From contig JAUWTD010000002.1 in assembly GCA_030609775.1 (NCBI GenBank), forward strand, positions 1 through 53,365: DNA of 53,365 nt, in the 5' to 3' direction. Positions 7,745 to 39,209 of the stretch are shown here, in pieces (within the stretch, counting starts at the first letter, position 1; every line of letters begins with the position of its first letter). The position numbers and the translations under genes were made by a program. Origin of the DNA: Candidatus Altiarchaeota archaeon (lineage in GTDB: Archaea; Altiarchaeota; Altiarchaeia; IMC4; QMZM01). Below the pieces are notes generated by a model. It was given only the letters and a program-made list of their open reading frames with translations. It had not been told where the DNA came from and made no database searches.

Positions 7745-8009
7745 GAATACTATTTTTAGACTTTATCTCGCTTATACCTCCACTCTATATTGTTTTTAGA
7801 TAACAGCCCGCCACAAAAGACAAATAAAATGAATCATGCACTGTGGCAGCTAACCTAAAAATAAAATATGATCCAATTATATTAAAATAGGGATCACAAG
7901 ATTAAATCTCTTTTAACAACCACACCCTACTATGCGTTTAAATGAAGATCCCTGAAATAAATCTTTAAGGTATTTATATGCAGGTATCTAATAAAGATAG
8001 GTAATTAAA

Positions 8010-8663
8010 ATGTATATCGTACTTATAGGCTGCGGTGAGACTGGTTCTGCCCTTGCAAAACATCTAACAAGTGAAGATCATGAGATTGTTGTTGTTGAAA
8101 ATAATGAGGAACGTGCGAAGTCGTTGGCCGAATCCATGGATGCATTAGTCATCCACGGCGACGGAAGCAGCACAGAGATTTTGAAGGATGCCGGCATAGA
8201 GAAAGCCGACGCAGTTGTCATATTAACACGAGACGATAACACAAACCTTACAATCTGTCAAATAGTCAAAAAATTCGACGTTAAACGAATTGTTGCAAGA
8301 GTCAACGACCCAAGCAAACAAGACCTATACATAAGCTTGGAGATTACTGCAGCTATAAGCCCTATTGCTGCTATCGTCAGCTACTTCAAAAACTCAATAA
8401 CCCGAGATCGAGGCAGAAGCGTCGTCTCCATTGGGAAAGGAAAAGCCGAAATAATCGAGGTAAGTGTAACAAACGAGGCCCTAGACTGCAGAAAAATCAA
8501 AGACATAGGCATGCCATCCGATGCCCTCATCGGCCTAATCTCACGGGATGGAGAAGTCATAATAGGCTCACCTGGAGCAATACTAAAGAAAGGGGATCTC
8601 CTTACACTGATTTCTAAAACAGAGGCAACAAAAGATGTTATAACCCTTCTAAAAGGCGATTAA
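8010..8663 (+). CDS. trkA: TrkA-type K+ transport NAD-binding protein (TrkA-N + TrkA-C)
   Basis: Rossmann start IVLIGCGETGSALAKHL, the pattern DAVVILTRDDNTNL, and a C-terminal RCK_C-like IEVSV...LIGLISRDGEVIIGSPGAILKKGDLL. Confidence 0.85.
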   Translation: MYIVLIGCGETGSALAKHLTSEDHEIVVVENNEERAKSLAESMDALVIHGDGSSTEILKDAGIEKADAVVILTRDDNTNLTICQIVKKFDVKRIVARVNDPSKQDLYISLEITAAISPIAAIVSYFKNSITRDRGRSVVSIGKGKAEIIEVSVTNEALDCRKIKDIGMPSDALIGLISRDGEVIIGSPGAILKKGDLLTLISKTEATKDVITLLKGD

Positions 8664-8689
8664 AATTTTAAAATAAAAAAAACAGTAAA

Positions 8690-8710
8690 CTCCACCCCTG
8701 CAGGGCGGAG
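8690..8710. terminator. Imperfect hairpin between the convergent trkA and tfb genes
   Basis: CTCCACCC-CTGCA-GGGCGGAG (7 of 8 pairs), flanked by A/T runs on both sides. Confidence 0.3.
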
Positions 8711-8734
8711 TATAAACTAAACATAAAAAAAAAG

Positions 8735-9679
8735 TTAGGAAGGTAAGGGATACGCCTTAAGCAAGTCCTTATTCTTAAACTCCCTTAAAAGTTCATCATA
8801 CCTATTCTTTATCGCAGACTCAGGGACCTCATTAACACTCACTATTGTTTCAGTTTGCTTATCATCCGTCATCCTACCTGCAAGATATATCGCTGCAGCT
8901 GCAATGCTTATCGGCACCTTACCTGAAATAATCCCTTTTTTCCGGGCATTCTCCAACATCTCTATAGCCTTTGCCTCAGTCTTACCTGAAACACCAAGCT
9001 CTGATGCAAGCCGCGGAACATAATCCGATGCTTTAATCACAGGCATCTTCAACTCCAGTCTCCTGCATATTGTCCGATAACTCCTACCAATATCCTTCTT
9101 CTTTACACCAGAGACCTCTTCTAACTCCTTTAATGTCTTAGGTAAGTGATGTTTCCTTGATACTATATAGATTATCGCAGCTATGACACTCTCTATCGAC
9201 CTTCCTCTGACGATTCCTTTATTCACACACTTCCGATACCAACGGGCACATTCCTCCTTTATGTTAGGTGAAACATTCAAGTGCGCACACATCCTATCAA
9301 GCTCAGGTAAAGCAATAGAAAGATTCCTGTCAACAGACGTACCCATCCTCGAACGCCTCTGCCACTTCCTCAGCCTATAAAGCTGAGCCTTCCTTTCAGA
9401 TGGAACAGCACTACCCTTAATATCCCGATCATACCGATCTATCTCAGTTGTAAGACCACTATTCTGTTTCGCAAACTTCAAAGGCCCACCCGTCCTAGAA
9501 CGCTTATTCATCTGTTCTTCATCAAAAGCTCTCCATTCCGGTCCAAAATCAAAAAGTTTATCTTCCTGAATCAGTCCACAACCCCTACAAATAACCTCTC
9601 CATGTCTGTAGTCAACCATAACCTTCATGCTACCGCATGATCTACAAGATTCCGTTTTAACTCCAACCTCAGATTCCAT
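8735..9679 (-). CDS. tfb: Transcription initiation factor IIB (TFB)
   Basis: N-terminal Zn ribbon CRSCGS...CRGCG, B-finger/linker, and two cyclin-fold repeats (RGRSIESVIAAIIYIVSR, ISGKVPISIAAAAIYLAGR). Confidence 0.95.
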   Translation of the reverse strand: MESEVGVKTESCRSCGSMKVMVDYRHGEVICRGCGLIQEDKLFDFGPEWRAFDEEQMNKRSRTGGPLKFAKQNSGLTTEIDRYDRDIKGSAVPSERKAQLYRLRKWQRRSRMGTSVDRNLSIALPELDRMCAHLNVSPNIKEECARWYRKCVNKGIVRGRSIESVIAAIIYIVSRKHHLPKTLKELEEVSGVKKKDIGRSYRTICRRLELKMPVIKASDYVPRLASELGVSGKTEAKAIEMLENARKKGIISGKVPISIAAAAIYLAGRMTDDKQTETIVSVNEVPESAIKNRYDELLREFKNKDLLKAYPLPS

Positions 9680-9717
9680 TTTAACCCCAACCTCCTATTC
9701 AAATACTATCCCTACCG

Positions 9718-9760
9718 CTGAAGGGTTACATACCACCTCATCCAACTGAAGGGTTACATA
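9718..9760 (-). promoter_or_regulatory. Two perfect 15-bp direct repeats upstream of tfb
   Basis: CTGAAGGGTTACATA occurs at 9718-9732 and 9746-9760 (28-bp period), 40-80 nt upstream of the tfb ATG. Confidence 0.25.
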
Positions 9761-9868
9761 TACAGATTTCAACCACCCCGAGAAACAAAAAAAAATATAA
9801 ACCGCGCTCTCGGTTACCTGTATTTATTATAGTGTAAATTCTGATATAAATACTTATCGGTTATCTGG

Positions 9869-9970
9869 GCTTTGCTCCTAAAGTACGTTTTGCTCCTAAA
9901 GTCAAGAAGTTGTTCCTAAAGTCGGCCACTGCTAATAAGTCGGCATTTTCAGTAGGTTATTAGCAAAGCC
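9869..9970. repeat. Left repeat module: tandem about 18-bp units followed by a terminal hairpin
   Basis: Units are GCTTTGCTCCTAAAGTAC, GTTTTGCTCCTAAAGTCA, AGAAGTTGTTCCTAAAGTCG and GCCACTGCTAATAAGTCG. The terminal segment is GCATTTTCAGTAGGTTATTAGCAAAGCC. The start and end are inverted copies of GGCTTTGCT..TAA. Confidence 0.75.
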
Positions 9971-17983: not shown

Positions 17984-20776
17984 ATGAACACAAAAAATAA
18001 ATTACTTTACCTGACTGCCCTATACCTTATAATATCATTTACTTCAGCAATCCCCATAGAGCCTGATTCAGGAACTACCCTATTCCCCACACAAAACTCT
18101 GATTTAACATCCCCTAATCTCCCACTATTAACTCCTTTTTCCATTGCAACAACAGTTGCAACTGCTGGAGCAATGTTTTTCTTAATGAACCTTAAAACCG
18201 ACTCAACGACTTATCTTATCGGCCCCAAAGGCAGAGAACTCTACTTGAAATCCTCTTCCAATGAATGGACTGAAACCTCATTTTCAAACAACAAAGATTA
18301 CCTTAACTATCTCCACTCTATGATAAACAAATCCGAATCAGACCGAATCCCTGTCCGAAACCCTGAAGGGGTCTGGGTTTTATGTCCCACAGTCAATGTG
18401 AAAAAATATCTGTCTATGACTAATTCAGCAAGAAAGAGACTAAAAGAACTTGAAAAACAAAAAAATATTTATCTAACCCAGTTCATCTGTGCAAGAAAGA
18501 GAAGCCGCAATTCATGGTCGACGAGATGCGCAGCGAACGCATATGATAACACAGTATCTGAAATAAAAAGTGTGAAAGAAACCCTGAATATATTAGATTC
18601 ATGGACTAACAATCTCCCACTCCTCAAACTTAATACCGACTACGGCTTCATGTTCAATGAAAGAACCTATTCGTTCTCTAATGGAGTCATGAAAGGCATT
18701 TCACCGCAAGACGCCTACCGTCGCTTCAGAACTAAAGCAGAAGAAGCATATAATGAATTCAGAACATCAATGAAAAACACCCTCACATCTCTTAAAAAGA
18801 ACATAAAAACACTTGGCTGGGGGTTTGTCAACTTTTCTATAAATGCTTTGGAGTGCACATACTTCTCCTTCCGAAAGAAACTCAACGGGCTGAGAAACAT
18901 ATACGAAAAAGACCGAAATGGTCGGAATGGTTCATGGAAAAGATACCACACCAAGCTTTATGAAAACTATTTCACAGATTTCCGGGATAACTCAAAAAAA
19001 ATCTATGCGGAATATACTTCAAGCATCAATAAACAAGCATTCAAAATCTTAGTTCCTGAGAACGTGAAACTTGAAATAGATCTAAAAAAACGCGAAGCCT
19101 TAGAAAAAGAGAAACTCGATATGAGATCCAAGAAACGCCGTTGGAGCCATCAGCTCCGAGATAAAGCAAGACGCCTCCATAGGAATCTATTAAAAGACTA
19201 TAAGAGAGTCTATGACCTGAATCTGTTTAAGAAATTCAAGGAGAAAATAGATGACTGGTGTGATAAAGCCCTTAAAGATGCATGGAAGATGAAATGGCAA
19301 CGCACCCTTAATAAAGCTGAAACCAAATGCAAGAACATTGATCAATTCATCACAGAAGGCTTCTATAGCTTTAAGAACCTGATTCACCAAAAAGCCGTAG
19401 CAGAGATAACAAATCAATTCAATAAACCTAAAGAAGAAATTAAAGCAGCTGCTGGAGACTACAAAAAAACCATCCAAGAGCAGCAACATTCCACAGCAAA
19501 CACTGAAGGGGTTATAGTTTCACCTCATGAAACCCAGCCACCTGATCCTGTAGGCGACCTTGCCCAAGATACAACCCCTTCACAATCATTATCCAATAAC
19601 ATGAATCCATCCATACTTTATACCACAGTTACTCCAACAACCACCGGATCACAGAATAGTTTTTTCGGAGGCGTTTGGCAGTGGCTGACTGAAGAACAAG
19701 ACCGAACCCATGTAAAAGGCAGTGATTTATTCAGATGGGCCGGCAGCAACTCACTTGGACGAGGTGCATTGGATCTGCTTTTGGGCATATATGTAAAAGA
19801 AGATGGTAAGGTTACAACAACCCGCATAGATACTATTATGAACGCAACCATCATAGCAGGCCCTATACTAAGAGGAACGGCGGCAGGATCCCGTCTATTA
19901 ACTCGACTGGGACGAAGTTTCAAACGAAGCTGCGAAACCGCAAAATCCCTTAATTTAAGCAGTAAATTATCCCGACTAAAAACCTTCATAGATGATGCCC
20001 TACTCTTCACTAAACGAACCAAAGAATCTCTAAAACAACCCCTCACAAAAATAAAAAATACAACCAACTCAAAATTCCCCACCCTAAACAATAAAATAGA
20101 CGATGCAATAAAATTCACAAACAACACATCCGATTTCATTGGGCGTAATTTGAAGGTTGTAAGATCACAATTTGATTGGATAAGTGATATCTCTTCAAAG
20201 ATTGATAATGTGATAGACTTAGCGATAAAGCCTTATGGTGTTGATCAGTTTTTGGGTGTGGCCCGGAAGAATAATAGTGTTACAAGGTATTTGTCTAATT
20301 TCGGTAGGTTGCGGAATATTGATTTTCTTTATGGTGGTCGTAATGCGAGTTATACTAGGTTTGGGTTTTCTGGGTTGTTTAAAGCAAATGTAGGGCGTTT
20401 GTTTGATGCTCTTATTGATGCGGGCAGGGTTGTGGGTGGGAAGATTCCTAAACCTGTTAGGAATGAGATAACCGATTTTTTTTCTGGGATTGGGTTGACC
20501 AATGTCCATAAAAAAAAGATATATAATGTTTTAAAGGGTTTCGATGATGCTGGGACTTTACGGTCTGTGATTTATGGTAATGAGGTTCTTGATGCTGCAA
20601 AGTCTAACGTGGAGCAGATAGATAGTACCTACGCTGACTTAAAGGCGGAATTTGAGGAAAATATGCAAGAGGTAAGTGAAGATCTCATAGTTAATATGGA
20701 GAAAACATATGATAATTCATTAATTAAGGTCCAAAAAATACTTAAAAAACTGCCGTTGGTTGGGGGTCTTTTATAG
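17984..20776 (+). CDS. Large exported or membrane-anchored ORFan protein (930 aa), compositionally chimeric
   Basis: Signal/anchor LLYLTALYLIISFTSAI, a long K/R/E-rich helical region, a T/P/S/Q-rich linker, and a C-terminal region. Codon usage flips at about 20,140. No family recognised. Confidence 0.7.
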   Translation: MNTKNKLLYLTALYLIISFTSAIPIEPDSGTTLFPTQNSDLTSPNLPLLTPFSIATTVATAGAMFFLMNLKTDSTTYLIGPKGRELYLKSSSNEWTETSFSNNKDYLNYLHSMINKSESDRIPVRNPEGVWVLCPTVNVKKYLSMTNSARKRLKELEKQKNIYLTQFICARKRSRNSWSTRCAANAYDNTVSEIKSVKETLNILDSWTNNLPLLKLNTDYGFMFNERTYSFSNGVMKGISPQDAYRRFRTKAEEAYNEFRTSMKNTLTSLKKNIKTLGWGFVNFSINALECTYFSFRKKLNGLRNIYEKDRNGRNGSWKRYHTKLYENYFTDFRDNSKKIYAEYTSSINKQAFKILVPENVKLEIDLKKREALEKEKLDMRSKKRRWSHQLRDKARRLHRNLLKDYKRVYDLNLFKKFKEKIDDWCDKALKDAWKMKWQRTLNKAETKCKNIDQFITEGFYSFKNLIHQKAVAEITNQFNKPKEEIKAAAGDYKKTIQEQQHSTANTEGVIVSPHETQPPDPVGDLAQDTTPSQSLSNNMNPSILYTTVTPTTTGSQNSFFGGVWQWLTEEQDRTHVKGSDLFRWAGSNSLGRGALDLLLGIYVKEDGKVTTTRIDTIMNATIIAGPILRGTAAGSRLLTRLGRSFKRSCETAKSLNLSSKLSRLKTFIDDALLFTKRTKESLKQPLTKIKNTTNSKFPTLNNKIDDAIKFTNNTSDFIGRNLKVVRSQFDWISDISSKIDNVIDLAIKPYGVDQFLGVARKNNSVTRYLSNFGRLRNIDFLYGGRNASYTRFGFSGLFKANVGRLFDALIDAGRVVGGKIPKPVRNEITDFFSGIGLTNVHKKKIYNVLKGFDDAGTLRSVIYGNEVLDAAKSNVEQIDSTYADLKAEFEENMQEVSEDLIVNMEKTYDNSLIKVQKILKKLPLVGGLL

Positions 20777-20801
20777 AATAATTAATAGGTGTCCCCCCCA
20801 A

Positions 20802-21563
20802 ATGAATGAAATCAATCATATCCTAGAAGAGATCAATGCACTGAAATATTCGGAAAACTACCGAAGATTATATGACGCAATCAAATCTAACACGATTCCG
20901 ATAGAAGACTGCAGCAGCTGGGGTATGAAACAACCACGTATGATTATAGAACTTACTCTGCTAACGAGAGGAAGGTTGAATCACATATTTTCTAGAGATA
21001 CAATAAAATACAAACATGTTAAATCTCTATTATCTCTGCTCATTTATCTATATTATGTTTATAAACCCCAGAAACTTGATATTGCTGATGTAAAAAAGAT
21101 TTTTAACATTTATGATAGGGTCCTACTCTATTCTGATGATTTTGATAAGTGTTTTGAGACTTCTGCTCCAACTATCTGTTTTTATAAAAAATTGAAGTGT
21201 TTGAACTGGACTAAAGAATCTACTTATCTAAGAAAAAAGTTTTTTAGGAAGATACAAAAAGAAATCAACTATCCTTTGGAGGGCTTGGGCACTGAGCTGG
21301 ATTTTATGGTTAAGGGTGCAACTGAATACATCATAGCCTCATCTGCAGTTCAGAATGATCGGGTTGAAATAGTGGACTTAGATGTTTTTAATGGATATAC
21401 TACTTTTTTCAAACTCCTTAAACAAGATATAACTAAAATTGGTGTTGTTGTGGATAGGTCTGATGAGGAACTTAACCGTATTTTTGAGGAGATGGGGTAT
21501 TGTGGGGGTGTTTCTTATACTGTTCTTTTGGATGCTATGAGAGATATAAGTGGGGTTGAGTGA
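20802..21563 (+). CDS. Hypothetical protein (253 aa)
   Basis: ATG 20802 lies 26 nt after the 930-aa stop, with AGGTG 11-15 nt upstream. The track start at 20760 is TTG. No family recognised. Confidence 0.6.
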   Translation: MNEINHILEEINALKYSENYRRLYDAIKSNTIPIEDCSSWGMKQPRMIIELTLLTRGRLNHIFSRDTIKYKHVKSLLSLLIYLYYVYKPQKLDIADVKKIFNIYDRVLLYSDDFDKCFETSAPTICFYKKLKCLNWTKESTYLRKKFFRKIQKEINYPLEGLGTELDFMVKGATEYIIASSAVQNDRVEIVDLDVFNGYTTFFKLLKQDITKIGVVVDRSDEELNRIFEEMGYCGGVSYTVLLDAMRDISGVE

Positions 21564-21570
21564 TCTAGAT

Positions 21571-21912
21571 ATGAGTTCTACTGTTCTTATGTTTTTTGAG
21601 CTTATGATTTTTTGGTTTACTGCAGTTTATACGCTTTATGTTATATCCAAGTACCTTAAACTTGGACGGCATGATTTTCGGACGGCGTTTGTTACAGGGT
21701 TTATTGGTTTAGTTGTGAGTTTGATGGCATCTTTTTTGTTTTCTGGTCCATCACTGCGTTTTATTCTGTTGGTTTCCTATATCTGCCTGATAAAATCAAT
21801 TTACGGATGTGGTTGGAGAACTTCATTACAGGTTCTGGTAAGAACTGCTTTCTTCAGTGCTTTTATCGCGATTCCACTTATACTCCTACTCTATTTTTTG
21901 CTTGGAGTCTAA
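21571..21912 (+). CDS. Small membrane protein (113 aa, 3-4 predicted helices)
   Basis: ATG 21571 lies 8 nt after the previous stop. Hydrophobic stretches include VLMFFELMIFWFTAVYTLYVI, FVTGFIGLVVSLMASFLF and FFSAFIAIPLILLLYFLL. Confidence 0.55.
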   Translation: MSSTVLMFFELMIFWFTAVYTLYVISKYLKLGRHDFRTAFVTGFIGLVVSLMASFLFSGPSLRFILLVSYICLIKSIYGCGWRTSLQVLVRTAFFSAFIAIPLILLLYFLLGV

Positions 21913-22070
21913 TCAATGTTTCTGTTCTCCTAGATGTTATGTGGTCAATGAATTACCTCTACTTTTTTGAACTAAAGATAGTATAAATAGTGATACTACT
22001 GTTTACTATACCTGTTTTTATACTTCTTTATGCATAATGCATTAATATGGGGCATCTGTAGGTGATTAAT

Positions 22071-22214
22071 ATGGAAAACAAAAAAATAGTGGTTGAAGGA
22101 GTGTTCATCCCTACCAAAACTTGGAACGGGACGATGGACATTATTTTGGTTCCTGAGAATGATTTGCCGTTCAAGGATGGTCAGATAGTGAAGATCACTA
22201 TAGACTCTAAATAA
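22071..22214 (+). CDS. 47-aa DUF104-like small protein (possible orphan antitoxin)
   Basis: GGTGA sits 8 nt upstream of ATG 22071. The product is MENKKIVVEGVFIPTKTWNGTMDIILVPENDLPFKDGQIVKITIDSK. The pattern GVF.P...L.E.DLPFKDG..VKI.I resembles archaeal DUF104 proteins. A T-run follows the stop. Confidence 0.35.
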   Translation: MENKKIVVEGVFIPTKTWNGTMDIILVPENDLPFKDGQIVKITIDSK

Positions 22215-22334
22215 CTGCATCCCCCCTATTATATCTGTTGGGGACCTTTTTTTTTATTTTTTATTTATTCATATCTGAATAAAATTCGCTTGATAGTATT
22301 TATATTCGAATAAGTAATACCTTACTGATTTAAG

Positions 22335-23144
22335 ATGGTCGCTTTGAACGAGAGATGTCCTACAGGTATTCCTGGTTTGGATGATTTACTTGGTGGCGGA
22401 TTTCCAAGAGATAGGACAATACTGCTGTCTGGATCCTGCGGTACAGGTAAATCAACGTTTGCGGTGCAATTTCTCTACAACGGCATTATAAAATATGATG
22501 AACCTGGGATTCTGATAAGTTTAGAGCAAGATCCCAAGGAACTGAAGCAGGATATGTTGATGTATGACTTCGATTTACAAAAATGCGAGGATGAAGGTAA
22601 ATTAGTTATAATTGATGCGAGTCTTTCGAGGATGAGCTTTAAAGCCCCTCGAAAATCCTTAACTGCGGCGGTTCCTACGTTAGGTCAGCCTGCGGGCAGT
22701 ATGTCTCTGCTACCTGATGAATTCAATATGGATCGGATCCTTGAGATTGTTATCAGCAAGGCGAAGAGAATAGGTGCGAGGAGGATAGTCCTTGATAGCC
22801 TCCCTGCACTTGATTTCTTAGTGAAAGAGAGGACCACTGAGCTTGCACATGTGACAAGACAGCTTATATTATCTATGAACTACAGGTTAAAGATGGAGGG
22901 TATGACCTCTGTACTTCTCACAGAAACCCAGGAGGAGGATGGACGGATTTCAGCTCACGGCGTGGAAAGCTATGTGGTGGATGGAGCCATTGTACTATCA
23001 ATAAATGAGGCTCTGGATACTAGGACCTTGAGGATAAGAAAGATGCGTCAAACCAAGCATAGCTTGAAGCCAAGAAATTTTGATATTACTCCTAGAGGGA
23101 TTGTTGTCAAAAGCATAGAAAAAGAAGCTAGCCCACTTTTCTAA
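22335..23144 (+). CDS. KaiC-like / RecA-superfamily ATPase (single domain)
   Basis: GIPGLDDLLGGGFPRDRTILLSGSCGTGKSTFAVQF (Walker A), RRIVLDSL (Walker B), and a typical about 270-aa archaeal KaiC-like length. Confidence 0.85.
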   Translation: MVALNERCPTGIPGLDDLLGGGFPRDRTILLSGSCGTGKSTFAVQFLYNGIIKYDEPGILISLEQDPKELKQDMLMYDFDLQKCEDEGKLVIIDASLSRMSFKAPRKSLTAAVPTLGQPAGSMSLLPDEFNMDRILEIVISKAKRIGARRIVLDSLPALDFLVKERTTELAHVTRQLILSMNYRLKMEGMTSVLLTETQEEDGRISAHGVESYVVDGAIVLSINEALDTRTLRIRKMRQTKHSLKPRNFDITPRGIVVKSIEKEASPLF

Positions 23145-23150
23145 TGGAAA

Positions 23151-23534
23151 ATGCCATCCCGAGAAGATCAGATTATGACGGTTTTAAGCGGTGATTTACA
23201 GCCTTTAGAAGATATACATGCTTGCATGGTTGTGCGAAAAAATCTTGAAGGTATTGCTCCAATAACTGAAGACTTCAAAAAAGAGATCGTTGAAATTTGG
23301 GGCATACTAAAGAAAACAATGGACGAATTCTTCGGAGTCATAGCCCGTTATTCTGAGTTTGGCCTTAATAAAGTATACTTTGAACTAGGTAAATATGATG
23401 TCATGTTTTTCATTCTTCCTGCAACAGACACAGCACTAGTTGCTATAATCCCGGCTTTAGCGAACAGAGGCCTCCTTGAAGTAGAAATGGAGAATGCAAG
23501 AAGAAAAATAATACACATTATCGAATCCGGTTAG
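23151..23534 (+). CDS. Roadblock/LC7 (MglB-like) domain protein
   Basis: Begins 6 nt after the KaiC-like stop. The profile ...ACMVVRKNLEGIAP...LNKVYFELGKYDVMFFILPATDTALVAIIPALANRGLLEVEMENARRKI matches the Roadblock pattern (..lvvv....aNlGl...em..a...i). Confidence 0.6.
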   Translation: MPSREDQIMTVLSGDLQPLEDIHACMVVRKNLEGIAPITEDFKKEIVEIWGILKKTMDEFFGVIARYSEFGLNKVYFELGKYDVMFFILPATDTALVAIIPALANRGLLEVEMENARRKIIHIIESG

Positions 23535-23578
23535 TCTTACCTGTTTAACCTTTTTAGGACATAATAGCAGGCACTAAA

Positions 23579-24268
23579 ATGCTGGAATTCCCCTACATCC
23601 TCATAGGATATGCCCTGCTGGGCGCTGGAATAAAATATGCAGACCAAGCATATGATATAGGGGTATTCAACAAAAGAAAAGCCAACATTGTAGCAGTGCT
23701 CACCGCGATTCTTATGGTCCTTTTAATAGTTTTTGATTCACCCTCAACAATAATCCTTCTCTCAATACTTTTTACAGTAGCAATAACAAAGAAAATCGAT
23801 AATATAGCGTTCTACATAGGAACAGGAATACTATTACTTATCCTCTTAACTGCGATGTTTTTAGGTATAGGAGATCAAAATGTTAGTCTGATGTGGCTTC
23901 CTTTCAGTGTTCTATTATTCTCCGGCATCATTGATGAAATAGGGAACGACTGGTCTGATGTTAGATGTAAAAAGAAACGAATGTATAACCTTAAAAATAA
24001 TTTGAGGAACAATTTTGATAACTCTCCTATAAAAGAATTCCTTGAAGTGTTTTTTGCACACCGTTGGACGCTGAAACTTACCTTATTTCTTCTTACGGTC
24101 ACAACTTTTTTTCCCTACCTATATCTAATAGCATTCATTCTGTTTGATTTAACATACGCCCTTGTTGAATGGTATAGCTTCAACATCAAAACATATCACC
24201 TTTCAAATCCATTGATGGCTGTTAAAAACCACTTTAATACATCAATTAGTCCTATCTTAGATGATTAA
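23579..24268 (+). CDS. Polytopic membrane protein (about 6 helices), no family recognised
   Basis: Several hydrophobic helices, with a basic loop (RCKKKRMYNLKNNLRNNF) in the middle. Lies in the same operon-like string as the KaiC-like and Roadblock genes. Confidence 0.6.
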   Translation: MLEFPYILIGYALLGAGIKYADQAYDIGVFNKRKANIVAVLTAILMVLLIVFDSPSTIILLSILFTVAITKKIDNIAFYIGTGILLLILLTAMFLGIGDQNVSLMWLPFSVLLFSGIIDEIGNDWSDVRCKKKRMYNLKNNLRNNFDNSPIKEFLEVFFAHRWTLKLTLFLLTVTTFFPYLYLIAFILFDLTYALVEWYSFNIKTYHLSNPLMAVKNHFNTSISPILDD

Positions 24269-24341
24269 CTAAACAAAACAGTTTTTATCTTGAATGAGGT
24301 AATAACTTACTAATTGCTATCTCTTCTTACATCTGAATAAA

Positions 24342-25712
24342 ATGACAGAGTTGACCATAACTCAGGCAACCGAACCTAAAAAGATTCCCTCAGAATGGGA
24401 TTCAATTAAAAATAACATAAACGAAATTTCATCAAAATCCAAATTCAAATCAGCAGTAGGCCTATCACGACAATGGGATGCTCGTAAAGCCGGCAGAGAA
24501 GTCGCAGCTACAACACTGGAAAAATTAGGTAAAAAACCTGATTTCTTCATCCTATTCAGCACAATACACTACAAAGATCACGGAGGCTTCAAAGAATTCC
24601 TCAAAGGAGTCTGGGAAATCCTACCCAAAGGAACACCACTAATGGGCGGAACTGTTGCAGGATTCACAAACAATTACGGGTGCTTCACTAGAGGAGCAAC
24701 AGCTATAGCTGTATCCTACCCCCATATGGACGTATCTATTGGTGTTGGAAGAGATACAAGAAAAAATCCAAAAAAGGCAGCTAAAGAGTTGTCTAGATCT
24801 ATTAAAATCCTTCAAAATAAGTCTACTCATAATAGTTCCTTCCTATTTTGCAGTCTTCCTGGTGGAACTATTCCTCAATTTTTTGGATTTGGCAGACAAA
24901 AAGTTATGAAATCAGGCATTATCAGTAAACTTTCTTTATGGTTGCTAGATCTGTCTATACGCTTGATGCAAATGGGTCCTGGACGAGAAGATGAAATATT
25001 TGAAGAGTTAGGACATCAGTTAGCTGAGTGGCATATCTTAGGTGGTAGTGCTATGGATGATCTTACACAAAAACGATCTTATCAATTTTTCGGTAATGAA
25101 ATATGTTCTACGGATCTCGTTGGTTTAGGCATTAAAACCAACTTAAAGTGTGATATAGTTACAAAATATGGTTTAACGAGAACTGGAATCAAAATGCATA
25201 TAACAAAGAAAGGATTACGAAATTGTGTTATTAAAGAAATAGACGGTAAACCTGCCACAAAAGAATTTCTTAGTAGACTTGGATGGCCAGAAGATTTTTT
25301 AGATGATCGATTATATACTAAAACATTTTATTATCCTCTTGGATATACATATAAAGGTATATTGAGACCAGAGATTATTGGTGCATTTTTAGGAGATAAT
25401 ATCGCCTGTGGATATAGTATTAAAACAGATGATATAGAAATACTGTCTGCATCTGGAGTTTCACTTATTCAGGCAATGAAAGAATGTGCTGATGAAATAG
25501 TTAGAAATAAACCTAAAATTATTCTAGGTGTAGCTTGTGCAACACAATTAGAAACACTTGGAAGTGAGATATACCACGCATATGATCAATTCAAACATTA
25601 TTTCCAAGATACTCCTTTTATGATAGTTTACTGTGCTGGAGAGGGAAGTTATGATCCTAAGTCCCCACCAAAACAATTATATGATAGCATTAATTTATCC
25701 TGTTTGTATTGA
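24342..25712 (+). CDS. FIST (FIST_N + FIST_C) sensory-domain protein
   Basis: PDFFILFSTIHY...LPKGTPLMGGTVAGF...GATAIAVSY is FIST_N-like. YYPLGYTY...ACGYSIKTDDIEILSAS...FMIVYCAGEGSY is FIST_C-like. Confidence 0.7.
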   Translation: MTELTITQATEPKKIPSEWDSIKNNINEISSKSKFKSAVGLSRQWDARKAGREVAATTLEKLGKKPDFFILFSTIHYKDHGGFKEFLKGVWEILPKGTPLMGGTVAGFTNNYGCFTRGATAIAVSYPHMDVSIGVGRDTRKNPKKAAKELSRSIKILQNKSTHNSSFLFCSLPGGTIPQFFGFGRQKVMKSGIISKLSLWLLDLSIRLMQMGPGREDEIFEELGHQLAEWHILGGSAMDDLTQKRSYQFFGNEICSTDLVGLGIKTNLKCDIVTKYGLTRTGIKMHITKKGLRNCVIKEIDGKPATKEFLSRLGWPEDFLDDRLYTKTFYYPLGYTYKGILRPEIIGAFLGDNIACGYSIKTDDIEILSASGVSLIQAMKECADEIVRNKPKIILGVACATQLETLGSEIYHAYDQFKHYFQDTPFMIVYCAGEGSYDPKSPPKQLYDSINLSCLY

Positions 25713-25721
25713 TTTCCGTTA

Positions 25722-26846
25722 TTACTGTGCCAATATCTCATTGATAAGTTCTCTTCTCACTCTCGTTGGTATTTTTCTGTTCATAAAAGCATTATAAAAT
25801 TGTTCTTTAAGTTGGAGTAATGAGTCCAAGTTTTCTCCAAGAGTGGAGTTTATATACGTCTTATCCTTCCATTTTTGTTGATATTTGCTAAGATATTTTT
25901 TACCCCAATTATTTTTTTTGATGCATAATGCAGCGGTTTCACCAGCTACACTGCCAGATATCATTGAGGGACTAATACCCTCCCCCGTAATTGGATCAAC
26001 CATCCCTGCAGCATCACCCACTAAGATTATTCCATTAGCAATAGTCTCTTTTGTTAATTTAGGGCCACAAATAGGTATACCCCCTCCTCTGGTTTCCAAT
26101 GTAACATATTTTTTTTCGATCATATTGCAAATATTAGGGTATTCTAATATGAAAAAATCAAGCGATTTTTTAGCGTTTATCTTTGAACTGACAGCAACAC
26201 CTACATTAGCGTGTTTTCCCCCCTTTGGGAATAGCCAGGCACATCCTTGGAAGAATTCTTCACCAAAAGCAATATGCCACACATTGTTTTCGATAGTGTT
26301 TAGCCCAAAGATTTCAAGAGCATATCCTTTTGAAAAATCATTTGTTTTCCACCCATTTCTGATTCCAGCATACCTTCCAATGTTACACTCGAATCCATCT
26401 GCACCAATAACTATTCTCGTTTTTATTTCTTTGTAGTTCGCTCCCTGTTTGACTTTTACATGCCATATCCCCCCCATTTTTTTCATTCCAATGGCTTTAG
26501 TGTCTACAGATATTCTTGCTCCAGCAATTTCGGCTTGTTGTGCTATATATTTATCAAAAATTCTTCTATCTATTGTATAGCCCTTCCATTGATCTGCATT
26601 TAACTCATAAATTTCATTGTAAAAATATATTTTAGTTCCATCTATTTTCTGTTTTATGAATGAATCATCTTTTTTAATTCCTGTATCCCTAAACAAAAAT
26701 TTATTTATTCCTTCAGCACATCTTACAGGATATCCGATTTCTTTATTACGTTCTATTAGCAATACGTTTACACTCAGCTCAGAGGCGGTTTTTGCTGCCA
26801 TTGATCCCGCAGGACCCGCTCCGATAATTAAAATATCATATATCAT
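25722..26846 (-). CDS. Geranylgeranyl reductase family FAD-dependent oxidoreductase (paralog 1)
   Basis: YDILIIGAGPAGSMAA, VRCAEGINK, CAWLFPKGGKHANVGV and GDAAGMVDPITGEGI. Start set at ATG 26846; the track start at 26858 is TTG. Confidence 0.85.
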   Translation of the reverse strand: MIYDILIIGAGPAGSMAAKTASELSVNVLLIERNKEIGYPVRCAEGINKFLFRDTGIKKDDSFIKQKIDGTKIYFYNEIYELNADQWKGYTIDRRIFDKYIAQQAEIAGARISVDTKAIGMKKMGGIWHVKVKQGANYKEIKTRIVIGADGFECNIGRYAGIRNGWKTNDFSKGYALEIFGLNTIENNVWHIAFGEEFFQGCAWLFPKGGKHANVGVAVSSKINAKKSLDFFILEYPNICNMIEKKYVTLETRGGGIPICGPKLTKETIANGIILVGDAAGMVDPITGEGISPSMISGSVAGETAALCIKKNNWGKKYLSKYQQKWKDKTYINSTLGENLDSLLQLKEQFYNAFMNRKIPTRVRRELINEILAQ

Positions 26847-26883
26847 AATAATGCACAATTACCTAGTGTTATTATATTGACAC

Positions 26884-28074
26884 TTAATTATTCTGTGATG
26901 GTCGTTTGTTTTTAGCTTTCAATAATCTTACTTCTAATGCCTTATAACTCATTTCCTCTAGTTCATTTAATCTCTCCAATTCAAATAGGTTAGTTAATAT
27001 TCCTGCGAAAAGTAGATGTTTTCCACAGTGTTTTGATGTAAACCATTTTTGCATTTTCTCAACCATCCCACGTGATATCCTGAAATGTGGATGTAACAGT
27101 TTCTCAATTGATTCCATATACTGTTTCATTTCAATAGATTCCCCTTTGTGCATTTTAGTTCCAAGTTCTCCTGCAAGATGTCCACTTATGCTACTTGGTA
27201 AAATACCTTCAATGAATGGCTTCAGATTATGGTTCGCAGCATCCCCTGCTACGAGAACATTTCCTTGAACCCACTCACCTGTAATACCCCCCCAAACCGC
27301 CTTTTTCGTTTTTTCTACGACATAGTCTGCATTTTTGACTTGTTTCTTTACCGATTCAAGTTCCAGAAATTCATGAAAGTACCTCTTAAGTTCCTTTTCT
27401 TTCATTATTCCGCCAACACCAACATTTGCCACTGTCCTTGATTTTGGAAAAATATAAGCATAACCTCCTGGAGTAAAATCACCTAAATAAATCTGTTCCA
27501 TGTGGGGATTATGAAGTTTCAAATTTTTCATTTCCCAGGAATATACTTCAGCTATGTCCCCTTTTTTTGGATTATACGATCCTAAAAGTTTTAACACAGT
27601 TGATTCGACACCATCTGCAGCGATGATAACATCTGGTTCTATCTCTATTACTTTTTTAGATACTCTAACTGTTGCCTTTCTGACATTGTTTTCTTTATCA
27701 AGTTCTAAATGGATTAGTTCAGTATTTGTTCTGAGTTCGGCACCAGCACTTATTGCTAAATTGGATAACCATTTATCAAATTTTTCACGGTTAATAGTGT
27801 AGCCCTCCCAAAGTCCACCTTTACGTTCTATTGTAATATCTTCTACCTGAAATGTAATTCCGTCAATTTTCCACGTTAAATAATTCTTTGGAATTTTAAA
27901 AGGCAGATAAGGAAATAAATATTTTCCAACTCCCTCAGCACACTGTACAGGAACACCAACTTCCTCTTTTTTATCGATAAAAATCGTTTTGGTTCTTCCT
28001 CGTGCAGCCGATCTTGCAGCCATTGAACCAGCAGGTCCAGCCCCAACAACTAAAACATCACAGGAAATTGGCAT
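26884..28074 (-). CDS. Geranylgeranyl reductase family FAD-dependent oxidoreductase (paralog 2, divergent C-terminal FAD motif)
   Basis: CDVLVVGAGPAGSMAA, VQCAEGVGK, GGYAYIFPKSRTVANVGVG and VAGDAANHNLKPFIEGI, where the last replaces the usual GDAAG..P.TGEGI. Confidence 0.8.
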   Translation of the reverse strand: MPISCDVLVVGAGPAGSMAARSAARGRTKTIFIDKKEEVGVPVQCAEGVGKYLFPYLPFKIPKNYLTWKIDGITFQVEDITIERKGGLWEGYTINREKFDKWLSNLAISAGAELRTNTELIHLELDKENNVRKATVRVSKKVIEIEPDVIIAADGVESTVLKLLGSYNPKKGDIAEVYSWEMKNLKLHNPHMEQIYLGDFTPGGYAYIFPKSRTVANVGVGGIMKEKELKRYFHEFLELESVKKQVKNADYVVEKTKKAVWGGITGEWVQGNVLVAGDAANHNLKPFIEGILPSSISGHLAGELGTKMHKGESIEMKQYMESIEKLLHPHFRISRGMVEKMQKWFTSKHCGKHLLFAGILTNLFELERLNELEEMSYKALEVRLLKAKNKRPSQNN

Positions 28075-28239
28075 TTTATACGGGTTTAAATAATCACCCT
28101 ACACCTATAATAGTGGATTTATAAATATTTAATTGTTATTCCACGACTTATATACTTCATCGCTCTATGTTTTATTCTATCTTTTAACTTATAGTTTCTT
28201 ATATTTTTTATATACTCCTCCAATTCTTGGATAGATAAA

Positions 28240-29433
28240 ATGGATATGCAGCTTCTTGTTCAAAGAAGGGATGAATTGGATGTAGATAAGGTAATTGAAT
28301 TCATCGAGAACTGTGAGAATGCAAAGGTTGCATTAGTGCATGCTTCACTGAAGGATGATTTTGTTCTATTGGATTTTTTCGAGTCACTAATCCAGAATCT
28401 TACAACCTCATTTGCTGGAGTGCGGGTGAGTGGAAGCGCAACACCTAAGGGCTATGTTGAAAATGCCATAGTTGTAGCTGTTCTATGTGGAGACTTTGAT
28501 GTAGATATTTTCCATGAGAAAATTAATTTCAATGAACCTATAGAAACAATTGAACAAATCACACCCAAATTGAACGGATGGAGTCTATGTCTAACATACT
28601 CAGCTACAACTTGCCAACAAAATGTTATCATGGACTTTATTTTAAGAAGGATAAACAATATTCACCCCAACCTACAGATACTGGGCGGAGCGTCCTCTCC
28701 CCCTGCATTTGTTGCAACCAACGACGGAATGTATGATAACCACATTTTATGCATTCCCCTGAAAAAAATTAAAACAAAATTTGAGATAGATTCGGGGTTC
28801 AGATTCTGCAAAGACAACGAAAAATTTATGATAACTAAATGCAATGAAATCAATGTATTTGAAATCAATGGAAAAAACGCAGTAGATGAATACTGCAAAA
28901 TACAGCATATACGACCCTACTTCCAAAACATGCTCATGAAATACGCACTTACAAAAGCAGATATAGCACGGATTATCAAGTATCTTTTTAAGGCTAATGC
29001 ATTACTCTATGAGAGTGGACCAAGAGTAGGTGTAACCATTTTAGGTACTTATCTGACTGAGGATTCAGTAGAGCTTTTTTTTGTGTTGGAATTAGAGGAA
29101 GAAAAGAATTATTTACTCACTCAATCATATAAGCCCGAAGGCACTGAATTACGGAGAACTGAAACAACAAAAAAAGACCAGATTATAACATACAATAACA
29201 TCCATAAGAGATTTTCGGATGCTGATTCCCTGCTGGTGATATGTTGTGTTGCATTACCTCTCTTCTTTGAATTCGACTTCAAATCCTTGGAGGATACCTT
29301 GAAAAAAATTAGGTGTCCCTTTTTGCTTTCTTTTATGTTTGGAGAATTCGGTGCAAACCTACCCTACACTGGATTAGAGCAGAATGTGGTGCATGGGGGA
29401 GTAGTGAAAACACTAGCATTCAAACAAGAATAA
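28240..29433 (+). CDS. FIST-like domain protein (more divergent)
   Basis: VALVHASLKDDFVLLDFF...GVRVSGSATPKGYVENAIVVAVL is FIST_N-like. LLVICCVALP...FLLSFMFGEFGANLP...QNVVHGGVVKTLAF is a FIST_C-like ending (GE...hN.t.v). Confidence 0.55.
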   Translation: MDMQLLVQRRDELDVDKVIEFIENCENAKVALVHASLKDDFVLLDFFESLIQNLTTSFAGVRVSGSATPKGYVENAIVVAVLCGDFDVDIFHEKINFNEPIETIEQITPKLNGWSLCLTYSATTCQQNVIMDFILRRINNIHPNLQILGGASSPPAFVATNDGMYDNHILCIPLKKIKTKFEIDSGFRFCKDNEKFMITKCNEINVFEINGKNAVDEYCKIQHIRPYFQNMLMKYALTKADIARIIKYLFKANALLYESGPRVGVTILGTYLTEDSVELFFVLELEEEKNYLLTQSYKPEGTELRRTETTKKDQIITYNNIHKRFSDADSLLVICCVALPLFFEFDFKSLEDTLKKIRCPFLLSFMFGEFGANLPYTGLEQNVVHGGVVKTLAFKQE

Positions 29434-34155: not shown

Positions 34156-34497
34156 TTTTTTCAGATGATAAAAAAAATATTGAGGCAGTAGCAGTAGCCC
34201 ATCTTCTGTAAAGCCTTATTGCAAACAATGCTTGCGTTGACTTCTGGGGCATTCGTCTAAGCGGCAAAAACATGCCTTACACCAAACAGGGCATCTCGTT
34301 TCACAAGCCAATACGCATCTTCAACCAAAGCATCATAATAACGTATAGGCATCTCGTCTCTTTAGATGCTACCATAACTTTCGCCACGCAAAAAAAAGCT
34401 GTAAAATAATTGGTGGATGGAACTTCCTCACCCCTAAGGGCGAAGCCCCACAGCAACTACCTCATGTTATGAAAAACCATGTATAGATAATTTATCG

Positions 34498-37370
<2,873 letters not shown>

Positions 37371-37575
37371 TGGCGAATCATCTATACATGGTTTCATAAC
37401 AAATAATCAAATGATTATTATCCACCCTTCATCCACAAATAAGCTTGTGAATTGCATCTAAAATTACCTGATTATAGAATAAAGCGGTAGTTATTTCACA
37501 GGTCGACTATTTTCACGTCTACTACCGATGAACTTATTATAAGTATCAAAGACTTAAAAAGTGATTATATTTTAT

Positions 37576-37649
37576 TGGACCCGTCGGGATTTGAACCCGA
37601 GGCCTCCCGCGTGCAAGGCGGACGATCTACCAGACTGATCTACGGGCCC
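37576..37649 (-). tRNA. tRNA-Ala (anticodon UGC) in the 16S-23S spacer
   Basis: The reverse complement folds as GGGCCCG-UA-GAUC-AGUCUGGUA-GAUC-G-UCCGC-CUUGCAC-GCGGG-AGGCC-UCGGG-UUCAAAU-CCCGA-CGGGUCC-A. The G3:U70 Ala identity pair is present. CCA is not encoded. Confidence 0.95.
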
Positions 37650-37716
37650 CCAACGGATAATATATCCATAGAATGATAATGAAATTGACACTTAGTGCAA
37701 ACCACTGGTTTTTCTT

Positions 37717-39209
<1,493 letters not shown>

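Follow-up and report, generated by a model that had tools for sequence, protein, structure and literature searches.

Genomic islands of the flexible, replacement type, and the capsule and O-antigen cassettes that are switched by recombination in their conserved flanks, place different but functionally analogous genes in the same slot of related genomes. Here we describe a locus that resembles them in a 53,365-nt stretch (contig JAUWTD010000002.1, hereafter the window) of a Candidatus Altiarchaeota archaeon, in which two genes for FIST-domain proteins, FIST1 and FIST2, enclose two genes for GGR-family flavoproteins, GGR1 and GGR2. Upstream of FIST1 lie genes for a KaiC-like ATPase, a Roadblock/MglB-fold protein (p127) and a membrane protein (p229), which together with the FIST genes form the frame of the slot. 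As in replacement islands, related genomes carry the same slot with conserved flanks and different but functionally analogous cargo, the GC content of the cargo is below that of the genome, and the junction falls inside a conserved flanking gene. New with respect to known replacement islands are the isoprenoid/redox cargo, where capsule and O-antigen cassettes hold glycosylation genes; the very distant donor lineage (about 51% identity for p127 and about 27% for KaiC); and a left arm formed by the 5' third of a sensor-type gene, so that the exchange makes a chimeric sensor protein. Within-species variation of the cargo was not seen between the two assemblies compared, which are 99.88% identical and share the cassette.

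Third codon positions on the plus strand of the window are rich in A and C whatever strand a gene occupies: plus-strand genes end their codons in A or C and minus-strand genes in G or T, a strong strand skew. Because this extreme skew of the host marks resident DNA, a junction can be mapped inside a gene. In FIST1, a four-letter change-point test placed a break at codon 131 (position 24735; log-likelihood ratio (LLR) 22.7, permutation p=0.002), across which C at third positions falls from 0.27 to 0.08 and T rises from 0.17 to 0.44. This quantitative result bears out a shift in synonymous codons at about 24,750 that had been noted by eye in a preliminary description of the locus: phenylalanine is encoded by TTC in 8 of 8 codons before 24700, then by TTT 11 times and by TTC 4 times. 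Against a baseline of the 37 other genes of the window (G+C fraction at third codon positions, GC3, mean 0.386, standard deviation 0.038), codons 1-130 of FIST1 are host-like (GC3 0.37, z -0.4), and strong departures are seen for codons 131-456 (0.18, z -5.4), GGR1 (0.28, z -2.8) and GGR2 (0.25, z -3.4). Both GGR genes prefer codons ending in A or T, with lysine AAA:AAG ratios of 33:5 and 34:8 compared with 174:211 for the other minus-strand genes pooled. The core that comprises these segments has a GC3 of 0.18-0.28, compared with 0.39±0.04 elsewhere in the window, and the strand skew of the host is absent from it.

The two composition classes of FIST1 also have different relatives. Residues 131-456 are 70-74% identical to P0001, P0002 and L008, which with L001 and L009 make up an AT-rich, donor-like clade labelled Thermoplasmatales, and 27-42% identical to the proteins of five syntenic relatives of Altiarchaeota type (L088-L092) that were compared gene by gene with the window. 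The best match of the N-terminal part is the Altiarchaeales protein P0102 (84%); its protein identity to the AT-rich clade is 62-71%. Nearest-neighbour bootstraps, which rather than a tree underlie the affinities given here, placed the N-terminal part outside the AT-rich clade in 1987-1997 of 2000 replicates and the C-terminal part inside it in 2000 of 2000. Maximum chi-square analysis with P0102 and either P0001 or P0002 as parents located a break at residues 96-140 (chi-square 30-41, p<0.0005), the informative sites dividing 16-20 to 2 on its left and 14-16 to 61-65 on its right, compared with a chi-square of 5-14 when other clade members served as the query. Moreover, FIST1 carries an N-terminal extension of ~30 residues that is homologous to that of the native-type protein P0020, and the AT-rich clade is without it. 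The 5' 390 nt of FIST1 are therefore native and the rest of the gene, like GGR1, is xenologous. Three independent lines, namely the codon change-point, the discordance in chi-square and bootstraps, and the identities to syntenic relatives, concur with the earlier proposal of a block of separate origin and a left junction inside FIST1.

GGR1 is 57-63% identical to its counterparts in L001, L008 and L009, and 27% identical to the protein in the corresponding position of L088. In the same three donor-like loci GC3 is 0.12-0.27, A and T are about equally frequent and skew is absent, which matches the core, and the frame of their clade is distant from that of the window (p127 50-52%, KaiC ~27%). 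By sequence comparison, FIST1 codons 131-456 and GGR1 thus appear to derive from a distant AT-rich lineage carrying the same kind of module, and we consider it very probable that a cassette was replaced. The left crossover lies where the FIST coding sequence is most conserved. The replacement would have proceeded by recombination in which the conserved 5' segment of the FIST gene served as the homology patch, and the import would be recent enough that the DNA has not yet acquired the skew of the host.

The syntenic relatives combine a constant frame with a variable slot. Identity of the window proteins to those of L088-L092 is 64-80% for KaiC, 78-80% for p127, 47-60% for p229, 51-61% for FIST2 and 41-76% for FIST1 residues 1-130, and the positional counterpart of GGR1 reaches 22-27% (55% in L091). 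The slot is occupied by a GGR pair in L088 and L091, by a divergent FAD protein in L089 and L092 (accompanied in L092 by a saccharopine dehydrogenase), and by a B12-radical SAM enzyme with two ferredoxin-like proteins in L090. In L089, L090 and L092, KaiC is nevertheless 74-80% and p127 79-80% identical to the window. L090 is syntenic on both sides (thermosome 85%, AspK 75%, PDDEXK-HTH 61%, KaiC 74%, p127 79%, p229 60%, FIST2 51%), and between its FIST genes, at 7166-9887, lie the gene for the 515-residue B12-binding radical SAM protein and the two ferredoxin-like genes, with no GGRs. All relatives of p127 that share 69-79% identity with it and carry a name belong to Altiarchaeota or Altiarchaeales; together with the names of the closest FIST2 relatives and the synteny with L090, they are the basis for assigning the window to Altiarchaeota. 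Judged from these alignments, related genomes have here a cassette site whose frame is conserved and whose cargo varies, and the cargo of the window is discordant with the flanks in composition as well as in phylogeny. Because relatives with a close frame have divergent FIST C-terminal parts and divergent cargo, replacement accounts for the pattern and vertical descent does not. A further B12-radical SAM gene, encoding 638 residues, stands beside a FIST-FIST-GGR module in L006 (11181-13097). Toxin-antitoxin pairs (PIN, HEPN/nucleotidyltransferase, HicAB, MazE) lie in or near the frame of L091 (4102-4748, 5853-7942) and L090 (12523-14830); such insertions are consistent with a recombination-prone, accessory-rich region.

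The right edge of the core is approximate. A likelihood scan of host-like against AT-rich composition over the whole window reaches a minimum on the left at ~24740 and a peak on the right at 28557, and the cumulative likelihood is still climbing through the spacer at 28075-28239. FIST2 had been described as returning to the host norm at about 28,540; the return is visible in the peak of the scan and in a GC3 of 0.30 for codons 1-106 (z -2.2) and 0.37 for codons 107-397 (z -0.3), but it falls short of significance (p=0.08-0.12). The right junction would lie somewhere in 28075-28560, between GGR2 and about codon 107 of FIST2. The FIST2 family has 18 members and is mostly Altiarchaeota-specific, and a FIST2 relative is absent from the donor-like loci and from all 80 reference-genome loci of the FIST1 family (L008-L087), which come mostly from metagenome-assembled genomes (MAGs) labelled Thermoplasmatota, with a minority labelled Altiarchaeota, Aenigmatarchaeota, Micrarchaeota, Iainarchaeota or Nanoarchaeota. 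By this distribution FIST2 is a member of the Altiarchaeota frame. The block exchange envisaged in the preliminary description, with both FIST genes as homology arms, therefore stands in part: the 3' two-thirds of FIST1 and GGR1 are foreign and the left junction is in FIST1, but FIST2, being of an Altiarchaeota-type subfamily, absent from donor-like loci and without a significant composition break, is not supported as the right arm. Inversion was considered as the source of the core composition and rejected: the core combines AT-richness with a lack of skew, where the skew is not reversed, and genes of either orientation within it are intact. When the edges of the core were searched for repeats or terminal inverted repeats, only short pairs of low identity were returned. 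The best of these, a 26-nt inverted repeat that is 77% complementary (24746-24771 / 28369-28394), sits within ~35 nt of the FIST1 change-point and ~60 nt from the four-letter change-point of FIST2; in AT-rich DNA it is probably due to chance, although its position near both edges is noteworthy.

Several observations weigh against the import of a single well-bounded cassette. Within FIST2, the four-letter change-point (codon 64) has p=0.12, a directed test at codon 106 (28558) gave p=0.079, and a test on GC3 alone gave p=0.83. GGR2 is equidistant from native-like L088 and donor-like L001 (58% to each) with a weak mosaic signal (p 0.035-0.13), and it may or may not have been included in the imported DNA. 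The closest sampled donor-like proteins are just 57-74% identical, so that the donor is unsampled and the event undated. Intragenic breaks are not unique to FIST1: a gene of 930 codons at 17984-20776 breaks harder, at 20138 (LLR 53), and the maximal non-host-like segment of the window scan extends from 20140 to 28557, with the N-terminal part of FIST1 as a host-like island inside it. Finally, every Altiarchaeota-like relative examined has a FIST-plus-cargo segment rich in A and T at third positions (AT3-rich), with a break at the equivalent FIST codon. In L010 and L088 to L092 a GC3-rich frame contrasts with an AT3-rich segment of FIST plus cargo, with GC3 of 0.55-0.67 vs 0.29-0.36 in L090 and 0.61-0.69 vs 0.30-0.37 in L092, and the breaks in the FIST1-type genes fall at codon 145 in L010 (p=0.002), 114 in L090 (p=0.002), 88 in L089 (p=0.01) and 73 in L088 (p=0.07).

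This recurrent drop at an equivalent FIST codon, together with a skew sign that switches across the locus in L090 and L010, is what would be expected if the cassette were long-resident. Its AT-rich, unskewed codon usage would then be kept by low expression, by selection for AT or by a position where replication forks converge, and the AT-rich clade would resemble it because of a transfer out of Altiarchaeota or of an exchange at an earlier date. We regard this as unlikely. Long residence does not explain why the two composition classes within one gene coincide with two phylogenetic affinities, nor why relatives with 79-80% identity in p127 and KaiC have FIST C-terminal parts of 27-42% and different cargo. 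Mutational skew should imprint resident DNA, yet the core genes on both strands are unskewed, and the sign of the skew does not differ between the two flanks of the core in the window. Because of the phylogenetic discordance, the differing cargo in close relatives and the absent skew imprint, we favour repeated refilling of the slot through crossovers in the 5' part of FIST over an intrinsic cause of the recurrent AT3-rich segment.

Skew is variable beyond the core as well. A patch at 20138-21775 has reversed skew, with a G/T-rich plus strand (A 0.18, C 0.07, G 0.27, T 0.47). Its start lies inside the intact 930-codon open reading frame at 17984-20776, at the strongest change-point of the window, and it continues into those at 20760-21563 and 21550-21912. 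It is not a simple inversion, because its genes stay on the plus strand, and looks like a second recombinational mosaic, or an import from a relative with the opposite replication orientation, as in L090. Plus-strand genes of L010 (isolate LFW-28) reach A 0.47, C 0.40, G 0.09 and T 0.04, and the skew sign flips across the FIST locus both there and in L090, in the latter at codon 59 of FIST2 (LLR 25.6, p=0.002). To our knowledge, skew this extreme has not been described in Altiarchaeota-like genomes.

The order, coordinates and strands of the four genes are as first described (Table 1), as are the 9 nt between FIST1 and GGR1 and the 37 nt between the GGR genes, both recounted. The unit is larger than these four genes, however, and runs from a KaiC-like ATPase through a Roadblock/MglB-fold protein, a membrane protein and FIST to convergently encoded redox enzymes; p127, the KaiC-like ATPase and the conserved membrane protein are tighter partners of FIST that had been overlooked. 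By family (and in one case by fold), the proteins of the window are FIST, GGR, KaiC-like and Roadblock members, and on profile scores neither NosP nor equivalogs of the lipid GGRs. The gaps between KaiC, p127, p229 and FIST1 measure 6, 44 and 73 nt, and these genes probably form one transcription unit; GGR2 and GGR1 would form a second, divergent from FIST2 across the spacer. Elsewhere in the window, on the minus strand, an rRNA operon (34184-39208) contains 16S, tRNA-Ala(TGC) and 23S genes, with an RNase P RNA gene ~40 nt downstream of 23S; 5S rRNA was not detected anywhere in the 53,365 nt.

Table 1. Features of the FIST-GGR locus, with positions in the window.
Feature	Position	Strand	Basis
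KaiC-like single-domain ATPase, first gene of the frame	22335..23144	+	Pfam PF06745, 208 bits, residues 8-261
p127, Roadblock/LC7/MglB-fold protein (AF0774-type family)	23151..23534	+	AlphaFold model and Foldseek
p229, polytopic membrane protein	23579..24268	+	homologs in frame loci; acidic motifs
FIST1, full gene	24342-25712	+	Pfam FIST_N
FIST1 5' part, codons 1-130, native Altiarchaeota type	24342..24734	+	host-like codon usage
FIST1 3' part, codons 131-456, apparently imported	24735..25712	+	AT-rich, unskewed codon usage
GGR1, canonical GGR-family flavoprotein, in the apparently imported block	25722..26846	-	TIGR02032
GGR2, divergent GGR subfamily, native or imported	26884..28074	-	TIGR02032; conserved signature
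AT-rich spacer (165 bp) between divergent GGR2 and FIST2, probably a divergent promoter region	28075..28239
FIST2, second, divergent FIST; frame member	28240..29433	+	Pfam FIST_N
Compositionally foreign core, AT3-rich and unskewed	24735..28557		left edge firm, right edge approximate (28075-28560)

Searches of metagenomes detected 523 members of the FIST1 family (best matches 67-72%) and 470 p127-type proteins. Among the 80 reference loci, 69 have enough flank to judge the upstream gene and 35 are fully flanked; downstream genes were counted in 65. A p127 homolog lies directly upstream of FIST in 56 of the 69 and is its most constant partner, and a KaiC-like ATPase is found near FIST in 11 of the 35. 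The first gene downstream is convergent with FIST in 55 of the 65 loci. In 37 of these 65, at least one of the first two downstream genes encodes a GGR-family flavoprotein, and in 19 both do, which upholds the pairing of FIST and GGR beyond this genome; loci with GGR cargo are labelled Thermoplasmatota, Altiarchaeota, Aenigmatarchaeota, Iainarchaeota and Micrarchaeota. Other families in the first downstream position are Shikimate_DH-like NAD-binding proteins (14 loci), squalene-hopene-cyclase or prenyltransferase alpha-alpha-toroids (5), amine-oxidase-type flavoproteins (4), F420-type oxidoreductases (3) and B12-radical SAM proteins (2). As annotated by family, the squalene-hopene-cyclase/prenyltransferase and amine-oxidase-type cargo independently links the FIST/Roadblock pair to isoprenoids. 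In some genomes labelled Thermoplasmatota, p127-FIST is directly preceded by the glycine-cleavage genes gcvT and gcvH (L002 4849-6393, L018 6716-8311), and in L018 a Shikimate_DH/tetrahydrofolate-dehydrogenase-like gene follows FIST, an alternative context for the p127-FIST pair. Furthermore, two or three tandem FIST1-family paralogs (32-44% identical to FIST1) can follow a single p127 gene (L036 7689-11551, L079 7423-11232, L082 1327-5086, L006 4673-7281).

KaiC-like ATPases have reportedly been proposed as archaeal signalling hubs (Makarova, Galperin and Koonin 2017, mBio), and the pairing of p127 with a KaiC-family ATPase recalls that of MglB/Roadblock proteins with NTPases. The AlphaFold model of p127 (predicted local distance difference test, pLDDT, 86) matches MglB (6hjm) and Asgard Roadblock proteins (9jue, 7f8m) in Foldseek with template modelling scores of 0.70-0.73 and probability 1.0, and p127 homologs are named Roadblock/LC7/MglB by the Joint Genome Institute (JGI). 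Unlike the known pairs, the locus encodes no small GTPase, and p127 belongs to a separate, highly conserved family: it had no match to Pfam Robl_LC7 at E<=1, and some of its homologs match PF27410 (AF0774). Homologs of p229 with 30-60% identity are present in L001, L002, L004, L006, L007 and L088-L092 and share invariant acidic motifs (KYxDxAxD, KIDN, DExxNDxxD). Neither a Pfam, an NCBIfam nor a PDB family was found for p229, the best hit being sub-threshold TIGR03987 (17.6 bits vs a cut-off of 78), and PDB profile searches with alignments of FIST1, p127 and p229 gave nothing useful. No DNA-binding domain was found in the module.

The assignment of both outer genes to the FIST family, made initially from the sequence by inspection, is confirmed by Pfam FIST_N (PF08495), which scores 75 bits for FIST1 and 33 bits for FIST2 against a gathering score of 23.2. 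FIST_C (PF10442) gave 22.2 bits for FIST1, under its gathering score of 28.5, and no match for FIST2; some homologs carry PF10442. The FIST1 model (pLDDT 88.8) has the FIST domain of human FBXO22 as its best structural match (E=3.5e-8), with weaker matches to chorismatase and cyanuric acid hydrolase folds (E about 1e-3). Like NosP, the FIST proteins of the window are stand-alone and lie beside presumed signalling partners. Unlike NosP, these partners are a Roadblock-fold protein and a KaiC-like ATPase, and neither a histidine kinase gene nor one for a cyclic di-GMP cyclase is present in the window locus. The NosP equivalog NF041558 matched FIST1 with 41 bits over residues 215-326 only (cut-off 450).

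GGR1 and GGR2 score 198 and 164 bits with TIGR02032 (cut-off 158.8), in agreement with their first classification, and 34 and 49 bits with Pfam GGR_cat (cut-off 27). The motifs reported earlier, GDAAGMVDPITGEGI, GDAANHNLKPFIEGI, GAGPAGS and V[RQ]CAEG, were all found in the pair. GGR1 resembles the archaeal digeranylgeranylglycerophospholipid reductases (Thermoplasma acidophilum Ta0516m, 3OZ2; Sulfolobus acidocaldarius GGR, 3ATQ) in keeping all four family motifs, GxGxxG, a Cys near the flavin, the (Y/F)xWxFP loop and GDAAG...PxxGxG (among them in the forms PVRCAEG, AWxFPK and GDAAGxxDPITGEGI), and 3OZ2 is its closest PDB entry (residues 3-329, E=2.5e-50). In GGR2, GxGxxG, the Cys, PVQCAEGIG and GYAYIFPK are retained and the GD/PxxGxG segment, GDAAG...PxxGxG, is replaced by GDAAN[HQ]NLKPF[IV]EGI. 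This signature is strictly conserved in 10 orthologs of different lineages, in which PVQCAEGIG and GYAYIFPK are invariant as well; because of this invariance, GGR2 represents a selected subfamily, not a decayed copy. In contrast to the characterized reductases, the window GGRs occur as a fixed pair and score far under the cut-offs of the lipid-reductase equivalogs NF041160, NF041080 and NF041385 (189/149 bits vs 780; 119/95 vs 580). L089, L090 and L092 do without a canonical GGR at this site, a hint that the GGRs of the slot are accessory.

As to function, GGR1 and GGR2 most likely would act jointly on a lipid, quinone or polyprenol, hydrogenating double bonds of its polyprenyl chain. FIST would most likely form a ligand-sensing unit of post-translational control with the Roadblock-like protein and the KaiC-like ATPase, and p229 may handle or bind the isoprenoid substrate. 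The conserved synteny of FIST and GGR (37/65 loci) is compatible with the earlier suggestion of a sensor-coupled prenyl reductase, but two findings stand against it: FIST and GGR genes are convergent, and therefore not co-transcribed, and ~43% of loci have no GGR cargo. Sensor-linked polyprenyl reduction is accordingly put forward as a tentative proposal, to which we give somewhat less than even weight.

It is also conceivable that FIST and GGR are functionally unconnected and that the GGR pair hitch-hikes beside a FIST/Roadblock sensory pair in a recombination-prone region. The two gene sets are separate, convergent transcription units, 28 of the 65 loci are without GGR-family cargo, and in some lineages p127-FIST stands beside glycine-cleavage and Shikimate_DH-like genes. 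Mere hitch-hiking is nevertheless improbable in our judgement. GGR-family genes number only a few per genome, yet in 57% of loci, spread over several phyla, they lie first or second downstream of FIST; in the window, L001, L002 and L004 the tail-to-tail spacing stays near zero (-4 to +9 nt); the C-terminal part of FIST and GGR1 moved together in this genome; and cargo other than GGR is likewise isoprenoid- or redox-themed.

NosP-type FIST proteins bind haem, and FIST could by analogy work with the reductases as a partner that binds a cofactor or takes part in catalysis, such as a carrier of haem or a small molecule that supplies electrons or substrate. The physiological electron donor is unknown for many archaeal GGRs, although in Methanosarcina it is ferredoxin, according to a preprint passage that cites the original work (Isobe et al. 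2014, via bioRxiv 10.1101/486977). The L090 cargo includes ferredoxin-like proteins, and the weaker structural matches of FIST1 are to enzymes with small cyclic ligands (chorismatase, cyanuric acid hydrolase). We hold a catalytic role to be quite unlikely: the score with the NosP equivalog is an order of magnitude below its cut-off, no redox motif was identified in FIST1, and the constant partners are of regulatory types. That the mosaic is an assembly chimera of two populations, as might be feared for a metagenome-assembled contig with its left junction in conserved coding sequence, a setting in which contigs can be mis-joined, is highly improbable, because a second assembly (MAG GCA_048633605.1, with an identical thermosome protein) has the same structure with 23 mismatches in 18,930 bp and the mosaic is thus not a one-off artefact, because two joins would be needed, the right one where donor-like genomes without FIST2 offer no homologous sequence, and because an N-terminal part with 62-71% protein identity to the AT-rich clade is too divergent for k-mer joins.

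Taken as a whole, replacement of a cassette within a conserved module with the proposed function is the best explanation of the locus, and one we hold with moderate confidence. A broader reading, decidedly speculative, is that the frame is a docking locus for interchangeable isoprenoid/redox cassettes, with a functionally bipartite FIST and movement of cassettes between phyla. The conserved first ~130 residues of FIST would then remain with the frame, in contact with its Roadblock and KaiC proteins, and the variable C-terminal two-thirds would travel with the cargo as a matched part for recognition of ligand or enzyme. Recurrent crossovers (window-equivalent residues ~80-157, in five genomes) would rewire one chassis to new lipid-modifying outputs. 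Altiarchaeota are known for physical contacts between host and symbiont, which possibly helped cassettes to move between archaeal phyla.

No relevant description of FIST together with GGR, KaiC or Roadblock proteins in archaea was found in a literature search that did not extend to the main KaiC review. The conserved module is widespread and uncharacterised, and is repeatedly tied to GGR-family and other isoprenoid/redox enzymes, including a GGR subfamily that is marked by GDAAN[HQ]NLKPF[IV]EGI and always appears as a partner subunit. From the viewpoint of genome evolution, the locus offers a clean case in which a cassette was replaced across very distant lineages, yielding a chimeric sensor protein. 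From that of signalling and lipids, the module is a concrete candidate, open to testing, for the regulation of polyprenyl saturation in uncultured archaea. Current concepts are not overturned on either count, and both invite experiments.

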